DNA from: Patescibacteria group bacterium
Lineage (GTDB): Bacteria > Patescibacteriota > Patescibacteriia > UBA9934 > GWF2-40-263
Direction of reading: 5' to 3'
Assembly: GCA_038065075.1 (NCBI GenBank)
Contig: JBBTRQ010000023.1
Location: forward strand, 1-56,365
DNA: 56,365 bases
Position 1 is the stretch's first letter. Each line of letters opens with the position of its first letter. Below, piece after piece: positions 55,626-56,365 of the stretch. The position numbers and the translations under genes were made by a program. The notes below the pieces were generated by a model. The model searched no databases. It saw only the letters and a list, made by a program, of their open reading frames with translations, and was not told the origin of the DNA.

Positions 55626-55837
55626 GCCCGCGCTCATTACAACTAAATCTTCTCCAAATCATACACATGGCTTGTAAGTAGCCATAAGACAACTTGTCTT
55701 TTGTATGATTGCAACGTTTATTCCCCGCCCGCCGTAGCTCGCAAGAGCGAAGGCTGGGCAGTCCGCCATAGCCCGCAAGGACAACGGTGGACGAAATAGC
55801 AGAGCCCTTCGACCGAGCATAGCTCGGCTCAGGGCAT

Positions 55838-56365
55838 TTATTGAGAGTTTGATCCTGGCTCAGGATGAACGCTGGCGGCATGTCTAAGGCATGCAAGTCG
55901 AACGGTCCGCCATAGCCCGCAAGGGCGACGGCGGATAGTGGCAAACGGGAGCGGAACACATTGGTAACCTACCTCGAGCTCGTGAACAACCACTGGAAAC
56001 GGTGGCTAATACACGATATGGATGGGGGGTCTTCGGACATTCCCATTGAAAGCTTTTGCGGCACGAGAGGGGCCTATGTCCTATCAGCTTGTTGGTGAGG
56101 TAATGGCTCACCAAGGCTATGACGGGTACCGGGCGTGAGAGCGTGGCCCGGCTCACTGGGACTGAGACACTGCCCAGACTCCTACGGGAGGCTGCAGTCA
56201 AGAATCTTCCGCAATGCACGAAAGTGTGACGGAGCAATGCCGCGTGATTGATGAAGGCCTTCGGGTCGTAAAAATCTTTTATCAGGGACGAACAAATGAC
56301 GGTACCTGATGAATAAGAGGTTGCTAACTCTGTGCCAGCAGCAGCGGTAATACAGAGACCTCAAG
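55838..56365 (+). rRNA. rrs: 16S rRNA, 5' ~530 nt (runs off right edge)
   Basis: TTGAGAGTTTGATCCTGGCTCAGGATGAACGCTGGCGGC.., ACTCCTACGGGAGGCTGCAGT, GTGCCAGCAGCAGCGGTAATAC. Confidence 0.97.

Follow-up and report, generated by a model that had tools for sequence, protein, structure and literature searches.

The 56,365-nt stretch of DNA analysed here (hereafter the window; contig JBBTRQ010000023.1 of GenBank assembly GCA_038065075.1) comes from a tiny groundwater bacterium of Candidatus Uhrbacteria. Its metagenome-assembled genome (MAG), to which we will refer as G000, comprises 1.09 Mb in 44 contigs with a GC content of 54%. The window closes with the first 529 nt of a 16S rRNA gene (55837-56365, Rfam model RF00177). 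The subject of this analysis is a short palindromic element that is dispersed through the genome and forms three hairpins in this region, one as helix 6 of the 16S rRNA, in variable region 1 (V1), and two in tandem in the rRNA leader. A preliminary description of the window had reported the hairpin at all three positions, and the sequences are present there. The 16S gene of G000 is split over two contigs, with model positions 1-538 on C23 and 663-1520 on C42, so that ~125 model positions are missing. On C42 the end of the 16S gene is followed by its own trailer, a terminator-like hairpin, and then a protein gene, while the 23S rRNA gene lies on a separate contig (C3) and carries ~440 extra nt within model positions 15-2044. 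The rRNA genes of G000 therefore appear to be unlinked.

A likely rRNA promoter (TTGACA, 17 nt, TACAAT; 55597..55625, forward strand), as read from the sequence, is followed by GCTCATTACAAC (55632-55643), which we take to resemble the E. coli boxA antitermination element. Both are conserved in the leaders of related genomes, as is the 5' strand of the pre-16S processing stem (TATGATTGCAACGTTTATTCCC; 55704..55725, forward strand), which is complementary to the trailer GGGATAAACATTGCAATCATA on C42 and at which RNase III would be expected to cleave. The leader copies start one base past this strand and thus lie within the 112-nt segment that is removed to form the mature 5' end. The first (55727..55758, forward strand) has the structure CCCGCC-GTA-GCTC-GCAA-GAGC-GAA-GGC(T)GGG, a GTA/GAA variant with one bulged T, and the second (55761..55792, forward strand) is V1-like with a degenerate 3' arm (GTCCGCCATAGCCCGCAAGG-ACAACGGTGGAC). 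A further GC-rich palindrome, h2 (GCCCTTCGACCGAGCATAGCTCGGCTCAGGGC; 55804..55835, forward strand), lies just upstream of the 16S 5' end and is outside the family; relatives have a short, AT-richer hairpin in its place. The h2 palindrome contains CCGAGC-ATA-GCTCGG, and a related GC-rich h2 occurs in the metagenomic locus meta169. The V1 hairpin itself is the 30-mer TCCGCCATAGCCCGCAAGGGCGACGGCGGA (55906..55935, forward strand), with the structure T-CCGCC-ATA-GCCC-GCAA-GGGC-GAC-GGCGG-A. It is the first hairpin after GCAAGUCGA of the Rfam small subunit (SSU) rRNA model, which identifies it as helix 6 of V1.

The membership of these hairpins in the dispersed family was assessed with a covariance model, R1, built from an alignment (A1) of 59 dispersed copies from which the rRNA-borne copies were left out. 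The preliminary description had called for a covariance model of all copies; in the window, R1 recovers both V1 (34.5 bits, E = 3.7e-7) and leader copy 1 (29.8 bits, E = 6.9e-6). The dispersed copies in the window score 32-51 bits, and the lower scores of the rRNA-borne copies are explained by a 5' flank that is missing or atypical. Leader copy 2 is not detected by R1 in the window search because its 3' arm is degenerate (ACAACGGTGG). However, it is identical to the V1 30-mer at 27 of 30 positions (55762-55791), where shuffled sequences are expected to give no match, and the two share a run of 20 identical nt on the 5' side, GTCCGCCATAGCCCGCAAGG. Within the hairpin the two differ by three transitions, each from G/C to A/T, and leader copy 2 probably arose locally from V1 and is decaying through such changes. 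Each of the three hairpins has a GCAA tetraloop on a 4-bp inner stem, which places them in the extended-stem class of the family described below. Their predicted RNA folds have energies of -22.5 (V1), -21.4 (leader 1) and -14.0 kcal/mol (leader 2), with -19.3 kcal/mol for h2, compared with -5.6 and -7.3 kcal/mol for the ancestral forms of V1 and the leader hairpin, respectively. None of the three is followed by a T-run (the next bases are gcagtc, gaaata, and tagtgg), and an identity as intrinsic terminators was rejected on this ground.

The family has the consensus c(C/T)TG-(C/T)CCGCC-ATA-GC-(3-16 nt)-GC-GAC-GGCGG(G/A). It consists of a 5' yTG flank, a 6-bp GC stem (C/T)CCGCC / GGCGG(G/A), an asymmetric ATA/GAC internal loop, a GC/GC clamp, and a variable apex. 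The internal loop, 3x3 in size, is conserved as ATA/GAC, and the variants GTA/GAA and GAA/GAA also occur. A genome-wide pattern search of G000 finds 74 sense-oriented copies including V1 and leader copy 1, and the genome-wide search with R1 gives 81 matches; overall, the family amounts to ~72-81 hairpins of 24-36 nt in 1.09 Mb. In the window, the arm CCGCCATAGC with at most one mismatch occurs 14 times against 2.3 expected, a count that none of 100 shuffles reaches. In A1, 99.6% of the stem cells of the 59 non-rRNA copies are paired and both sides have changed in 23 cells, values that none of 500 shuffles attains, and two stem positions covary through G-C, A-U, C-G, and U-A. The 5' flank is CTG (n = 33), TTG (n = 17) or TCG (n = 8), plus C/T, and GTAG is not seen as a tag among the G000 copies. 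Two classes can be distinguished. The minimal-core class has 44 copies with loops of 3-5 nt, mostly TTCA, CTTG, CTCG, or TTTA, while the 26 copies of the extended-stem class have an extra inner stem. A T-run lies downstream of 15 of the 26 extended-stem copies vs seven of the 44 minimal ones (Fisher p = 4.6e-4), and the extended-stem copies before T-runs look like intrinsic terminators. Most copies are single and close inverted pairs are few (C36 3456/3506, C16 22732/22824, and a cluster on C10). Many copies lie within long open frames (300-960 aa) in both orientations and are translated, for example as PAVAEAMAG or LPAIASATAGG. One copy (C29:5988-6016, reverse strand) abuts the probable reverse complement of a tRNA 3' end, TGGTGGACCGAACGGGACTTGAACCCG, and may be a terminator for the tRNA gene or an insertion beside it.

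The closest relatives of G000 share 96-98% 16S identity outside V1. In G003, G004, and G013 the V1 hairpin is AT-rich, GTCCATATGCGATTACATCAAGAATGGATA or near variants of the TCC(A/T)AT..GATTA(C/T)ATCAA..GGA type, with the form TCCATATGCGATTACATCAAGAATGGA. V1 of the GATTACATCAAG type recurs in other genera and is therefore the old state. Between the same basal G-TCC...GGA-TA there are 30 nt in G000 and 27 nt in G003, G004, and G013. The comparison with close relatives, also proposed in the preliminary description, thus finds V1 to be lineage-specific, and among 401 representative genomes of the class an element-type V1 is found only in G000. In the leader, relatives have the processing-stem strand ..TGATTGCAACGTTTATTCC, a small hairpin of 17 nt, (A)GACACAGTAATTGTGTC, then AAATAGCAGAG, h2, and CATTTATTG, after which the 16S gene begins. 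The two element copies of G000 stand exactly at the slot of the small hairpin (GACACAGTAATTGTGTC in relatives), between conserved flanks. Judged from these alignments, the event is a replacement of native hairpins at a similar position, with a similar length in the case of V1, and not a simple insertion.

The same relatives carry the element elsewhere in their genomes. R1 gives 81 matches in G000, 84 in the more distant G016, 16 in G001, 14 in G003, eight in G004, and five in G013. The exact core CCGCCATAGC-N2-16-GCGACGGCGG is found at >120 loci from many phyla, including Saccharibacteria, Verrucomicrobiota, Bradyrhizobium, Desulfobacterota, Planctomycetota, Rickettsiales, Bacteroidota, and others, and the 5' flank c(c/t)TG(t/c) and the loop types of G000 recur at nearly all of these foreign loci. 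Since the family occurs in relatives and in many phyla that do not have this V1, it is far older and wider than V1, and the direction is from the element to the rRNA. Of the two readings offered in the preliminary description, the colonisation of the rRNA operon, including a variable helix, by the element is therefore borne out, because relatives carry the element yet retain an AT-rich V1 and an ordinary leader hairpin, and the core is pan-bacterial. The other reading, that the element derives from or mimics an rRNA helix, is not supported.

Some of the foreign loci show more than the core. In several Bradyrhizobium loci (L057, L079, L094, L100, L109, L114, and L138) it is embedded in a longer unit that recurs, flanked for example as in ..gcgagcggcttgt[core]aagcgaagcaatccag. 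The outer flanks of some G000 copies are similar (gtcattgcgcctgc[core]...cgaagcaatcc), a hint of a composite element that may be common to several phyla.

The dispersed copies in the window illustrate how the family is distributed. One copy (51933..51970, forward strand; 44.4 bits) is nested in the loop of a GTAG-tagged repetitive extragenic palindromic (REP) sequence within a radical-SAM gene (Pfam Radical_SAM). It belongs to a 60-nt in-frame insertion that the orthologues in G004 and G008 do not have, and its 'empty' REP partner lies at 51978-51995. These REPs form a second repeat family in G000, GGTAG(C/T)-CCC(A/G)GGC-TT(T/C)A-GCC(T/C)GGG, with ~37 'empty'-loop copies, often in inverted doublets (REPIN-like), and six copies that hold the core element in their loop. 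Another filled GTAG REP (45279-45326), with a copy at 45286..45323 (forward strand; 50.5 bits), stands in frame in smc (Pfam SMC_N). A T-run follows the copies at 5888..5927 (forward strand; 50.8 bits) and 54352..54393 (forward strand; 46.5 bits), the latter a terminator-like member of the extended-stem class. The remaining copies are one within a 477-aa open frame (16837..16874, reverse strand; 46.5 bits), a CCACC/GGTGG covarying variant (7376..7413, forward strand; 32 bits), and a CCCCC/GGGGG, GAA/GTA variant (50964..51001, reverse strand; 33.8 bits).

At the site of the 54352-54393 copy, ordinary hairpins with T-runs stand in G008 and G013, and G003 carries a hairpin that is related but diverged. 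The orthologous site of G003 (L039) reads CCCCCCTCGCTCACGAAAACGATGGGGGG, followed by the T-run found in G000, and its stem shows a compensatory change from G-C to C-G. It looks like a diverged copy, which would imply the vertical inheritance and drift of an old copy. This terminator site (54358) was also considered as a clean example of replacement and was dropped, as the upstream cassette is non-homologous between the genomes.

Element hairpins are not confined to the rRNA region of G000. R1 finds sense-strand copies in the 16S leaders of two other genera, G009 and G014, both with GCAA loops; the G009 copy, TCCCTCCGTAGCTCCGCAAGGAGCGAAGGGGGA, occupies the h2 slot and the G014 copy the h1 slot. 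In G030 and G020, copies lie downstream of the matched 5' part of the 16S gene, in what coordinate arithmetic places in the trailer or spacer, and one R1 copy is found in the G015 locus. That locus (G015:C6:37829-38270, L019) has ~440 nt in the 16S where G000 has 32 nt around V1, a large insertion at the same helix 6 position.

A metagenome scan for V1-type sequences returned six contigs. In meta169, which is represented by three assemblies, the identical 30-mer V1 is joined to a leader that keeps the ancestral small hairpin and has other GC palindromes inserted nearby. In meta173, a single contig, the identical V1 follows a G013-like leader with three element copies, one of which is an antisense V1-like copy (TCCGCCGTCGCCCTTAGGGGCTATGGCGGA). 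The V1 of meta168/L171, TTCGTTATTGCCCGCAAGGGTGATAGCGGA, is identical to that of G000 at 23 of 30 positions. All seven differences make mismatches or G-C pairs into A-U/G-U, giving a fully paired helix of -19.5 kcal/mol, and the variant may be an ameliorated descendant of the element V1. It also occurs in groundwater metatranscriptome contigs. In meta169 and meta173 (L169, L173), insertions of ~1 kb stand right after the GTGCC of the conserved 515 region GTGCC(AGCAGC), resulting in 16S lengths of 2458 and 2775 nt; the G000 contig has no insertion at this point and breaks ~20 nt further on.

In a 16S tree from which V1 was removed (1324 columns), G000 groups with G004 (97.6% identity) and G003 (96.3%). 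The meta173 sequence is sister to G013, which has the old V1, with 100% bootstrap and ~1% divergence, and meta169 branches apart. Because the AT-rich V1 is old and is kept in the nearest relatives of each carrier, the identical allele, which is present in at least two Uhrbacteria lineages besides that of G000, must either have moved laterally or have been gained on three or more occasions. No recombination breakpoints are visible around V1, which is explained by flanks that are invariant among these species over ~68 nt upstream of V1 and ~45 nt downstream. Such flanks would ease the homologous replacement of V1.

The junctions between element and rRNA are supported by independent DNA and RNA data. 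Logan contigs from four runs in three studies match 55560-55866 and 55868-56105 without differences. In DNA run X2, one 630-nt contig spans 55560-55979 with one difference and joins the leader copies, V1, and genome-specific downstream bases. On the RNA side, metatranscriptome contig X10 covers 55871-55976 with no differences, and a contig from a wastewater cDNA library, X24, covers 55877-56027 with an identical V1 and two differences downstream. The V1 copy appears to be transcribed and to stay in the rRNA, and the data fit the removal of the leader.

We consider it likely that the three hairpins are copies of a REP-like palindromic element that replaced native AT-rich hairpins at two permissive sites of the rRNA operon. 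What has been observed is the membership in the family, the replacement at two sites relative to sister genomes, the expansion of the family, an in-frame insertion, and the nesting in REP loops; how the copies are made is what we infer from these. The first site would be the small hairpin just 3' of the leader processing-stem strand, which now holds two tandem copies. The second would be the apical part of helix 6, where a 30-nt element hairpin stands for a native one of 27 nt on the same basal TCC/GGA pairs. For V1, the most likely route would be that one hairpin was exchanged for another through template switching or gene conversion on extruded hairpins, seeded on the common stem base; an insertion followed by trimming would be the alternative. 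Templated replacement is favoured over simple insertion because V1 has no 5' tag, no target duplication, a near-native length, and the TCC/GGA that is common to the native stem base. The V1 allele would afterwards reach other lineages by recombination across the invariant 16S flanks, or be gained repeatedly. Helix 6 is a solvent-exposed and highly length-variable 'spur' of the 30S body, which would explain why a V1 copy is tolerated, and the effect of this copy on the ribosome is probably neutral. The GCAA (GNRA) loops of all rRNA-borne copies and their place in the extended-stem class suggest RNA-level selection on them; the nearest dispersed copies have GCTA in place of GCAA.

A broader version of this mechanism can be put forward tentatively. 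The element may overwrite existing DNA or RNA hairpins at their stem bases, in place of cut-or-copy insertion, and so homogenise terminators, REP loops, rRNA leader hairpins, and a 16S helix, after which the V1 allele would move between Uhrbacteria in a homing-like manner with no homing enzyme. Hairpin overwriting together with the lateral spread of the V1 allele is plausible, but the broader version as a whole is rather doubtful.

Several observations weigh against a replacement by the element. The V1 copy has no 5' yTG flank, and its CCGCAAGG apex is absent from every dispersed copy in G000, the nearest of which is identical at 27 of 30 positions; no direct donor is therefore apparent. A mobilising enzyme has not come to light either. 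The Y1 transposase domain of REP-associated tyrosine transposases (RAYTs; PF01797) has no match in G000, where the absence of a gene from a 44-contig MAG is no proof, and the one to seven matches in relatives are unrelated to copy number. A DUF559/Vsr-like nuclease was considered and rejected as a mobiliser, since G000 has one weak domain match inside a 1066-aa frame, and in G016, with 84 copies and five DUF559 genes, an R1 match lies near only one of the five. Around 124 foreign copies there is no recurrent neighbour gene, the largest cluster comprising four loci. Seven RNA runs yielded neither a contig nor a read over 55560-55836, although contigs cannot prove absence, and the evidence that V1 is retained in the rRNA comes from two contigs of low depth, assembled from cDNA libraries in which DNA may be present. 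Metagenome chimeras could mimic lateral spread through the invariant flanks, mainly in the single contig meta173. Finally, the conserved ATA/GAC loop may have a functional role as a protein-binding RNA or single-stranded DNA (ssDNA) motif.

This last point leads to the strongest of the rival explanations, namely that the likeness reflects shared function and not descent. A conserved protein, such as a nuclease, a chaperone, or a ribosomal or assembly factor, would then recognise the ATA/GAC hairpin as an RNA or ssDNA module, and the hairpin would have been selected independently in rRNA, leaders, and terminators. The conservation of the core and its mismatches across phyla, the sense orientation and GNRA loops of all rRNA and leader copies, and the link of the extended class to T-runs agree with such a module. 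On the other hand, an element-type V1 in one of 401 class genomes that is absent from sister species is not required, and copies occur in both orientations within open reading frames (ORFs), where they are translated. The identities of 20-30 nt among V1, leader copy 2, and the V1 of other lineages indicate copying and not convergence. In addition, an Rfam scan of the leader and V1 region returned only SSU rRNA, whether gathering thresholds were applied or E values up to 5 were allowed. Based on these observations, independent selection for a shared function is unlikely.

Replacement by the element could also be turned around, with the rRNA V1 or leader hairpin as the source of the dispersed family or of its extended subfamily. 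V1-like copies with a GCCC..GGGC apex do lie near V1 in two leaders, in sense in G000 and in antisense in meta173, and V1 may seed local copies. The family is nevertheless present in relatives and in many phyla without this V1, the AT-rich V1 common to several genera is clearly older, and no dispersed copy in G000 has the V1 apex. The diverged orthologous copy in G003 also suggests that dispersed copies predate the V1 allele. A reversed direction is accordingly very improbable.

A further possibility is an assembly artefact, in which V1 and/or the leader hairpins were stitched in from another organism or from a dispersed copy. The 16S gene is prone to chimeric assembly, the V1 flanks are identical among related species, and in G000 the gene is split over two contigs. 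Against this, the independent contigs from four runs in three studies differ at 0-1 positions, and one of them spans leader, V1, and genome-specific bases. The same V1 is joined to a different leader in three separate assemblies, and cDNA contigs carry it as well, so we regard an artefact as slightly less probable still than a reversed direction. Chance likeness of GC-rich stems, the remaining explanation and one raised in the preliminary description, is refuted: CCCGCC/GGCGGG stems are common in GC-rich hairpins and, by our own estimate, chance alone would produce the exact 20-base core at least a few dozen times in 596 Gb of GC-rich genomes, but the R1 E-values of 1e-6 to 1e-7, the shuffles that do not reach the CCGCCATAGC count and give no matches, the 20-nt identical run, and the conservation of mismatch loop and flank in foreign copies speak against it.

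Among the closest known systems are the Rickettsia palindromic elements (RPEs), which the element resembles in function only. RPEs occur in frame in protein genes and also within the genes for tmRNA and RNase P RNA (Ogata et al. 2000, 2002, as reviewed in PMC2229807). Both RPEs and the element of G000 are short palindromic selfish repeats of a small reduced genome, lie in frame in housekeeping proteins and at tolerated sites of structural RNA genes, and lack a transposase of their own. Traits of this type in G000 are the 60-nt radical-SAM insertion without counterpart in G004 and G008, the smc copy, and the copy that forms 16S helix 6. The element differs in its size (24-36 nt vs ~100-150 nt for RPE-1), in its target, a mature 16S helix and the rRNA leader, in the replacement and not interruption of the native hairpin, and in a core that is common to several phyla.

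REP and REPIN elements, RAYT transposases, and the GTAG/CGTC-tagged REP superfamilies have been described by Di Nocera et al. (2013; PMC3733652). The element of G000 is similar to REPs in being an imperfect GC-rich palindrome of 20-40 nt with high copy number, conserved internal mismatches, and an unpaired 5' flank. Like REPs, it is found mostly downstream of genes with some intragenic copies, and its copy number varies strongly among close relatives. Unlike REPs, it has the flank yTG(y) in place of GTAG or CGTC, G000 has no RAYT (PF01797) match, and copies are nested in the loops of true GTAG REPs. A keyword search of PMC3733652 returned no rRNA-borne REP.

Repetitive hairpin elements and palindromic repeats have also been reported in mitochondrial rRNA genes, in sponges (PMC2800124) and in Volvox (PMC2670323). 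Like the element of G000, these mobile hairpins build up between genes and have also entered rRNA genes, at sites that vary in length and presumably tolerate them. The mitochondrial cases are, however, organellar and are lengthening insertions, whereas here a bacterium shows a like-for-like helix replacement with an allele common to lineages. The intervening sequences (IVSs) of rRNA and the rRNA insertion sequences and introns of the Candidate Phyla Radiation (CPR) range from ~100 to >1000 nt, are excised, and often encode homing endonucleases (PMC11270868). Like the V1 copy, they are located in variable regions of the rRNA, at the top or the base of a stem-loop, and they are common in CPR bacteria. 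An IVS was rejected as an explanation of V1, as the low-depth cDNA contigs are continuous through it and its length is near that of the native helix. A CPR insertion or group I-II intron was rejected likewise, since V1 comprises 30 nt with no ORF and no Rfam intron match. A literature search for the core sequence gave unrelated primer matches only, and a limited literature search found no description of a REP-like element forming a bacterial mature 16S helix, or of such an allele common to lineages.

The finding bears on several aspects of rRNA and repeat biology. Sister taxa that are ~99% identical elsewhere can differ completely in V1, which can mislead V1-V2 and V1-V3 amplicon taxonomy, chimera filters, and CPR probe design. 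The two V1 states, with -22.5 vs -5.6 kcal/mol, offer a natural experiment on the tolerance of helix 6 to changes in stability. The family also provides a well-defined case for the open question of how REP-like elements are copied without a transposase. If hairpin overwriting is true, a pan-bacterial mini-palindrome would remodel structural RNAs by a route not described before. The finding shows that a variable region of the 16S rRNA can change by wholesale replacement, possibly by lateral transfer, rather than by point substitution, and a selfish mini-palindrome can reside in an apparently functional, retained bacterial 16S rRNA, where earlier cases came mainly from organelle rRNAs and from the tmRNA and RNase P RNA genes of Rickettsia.

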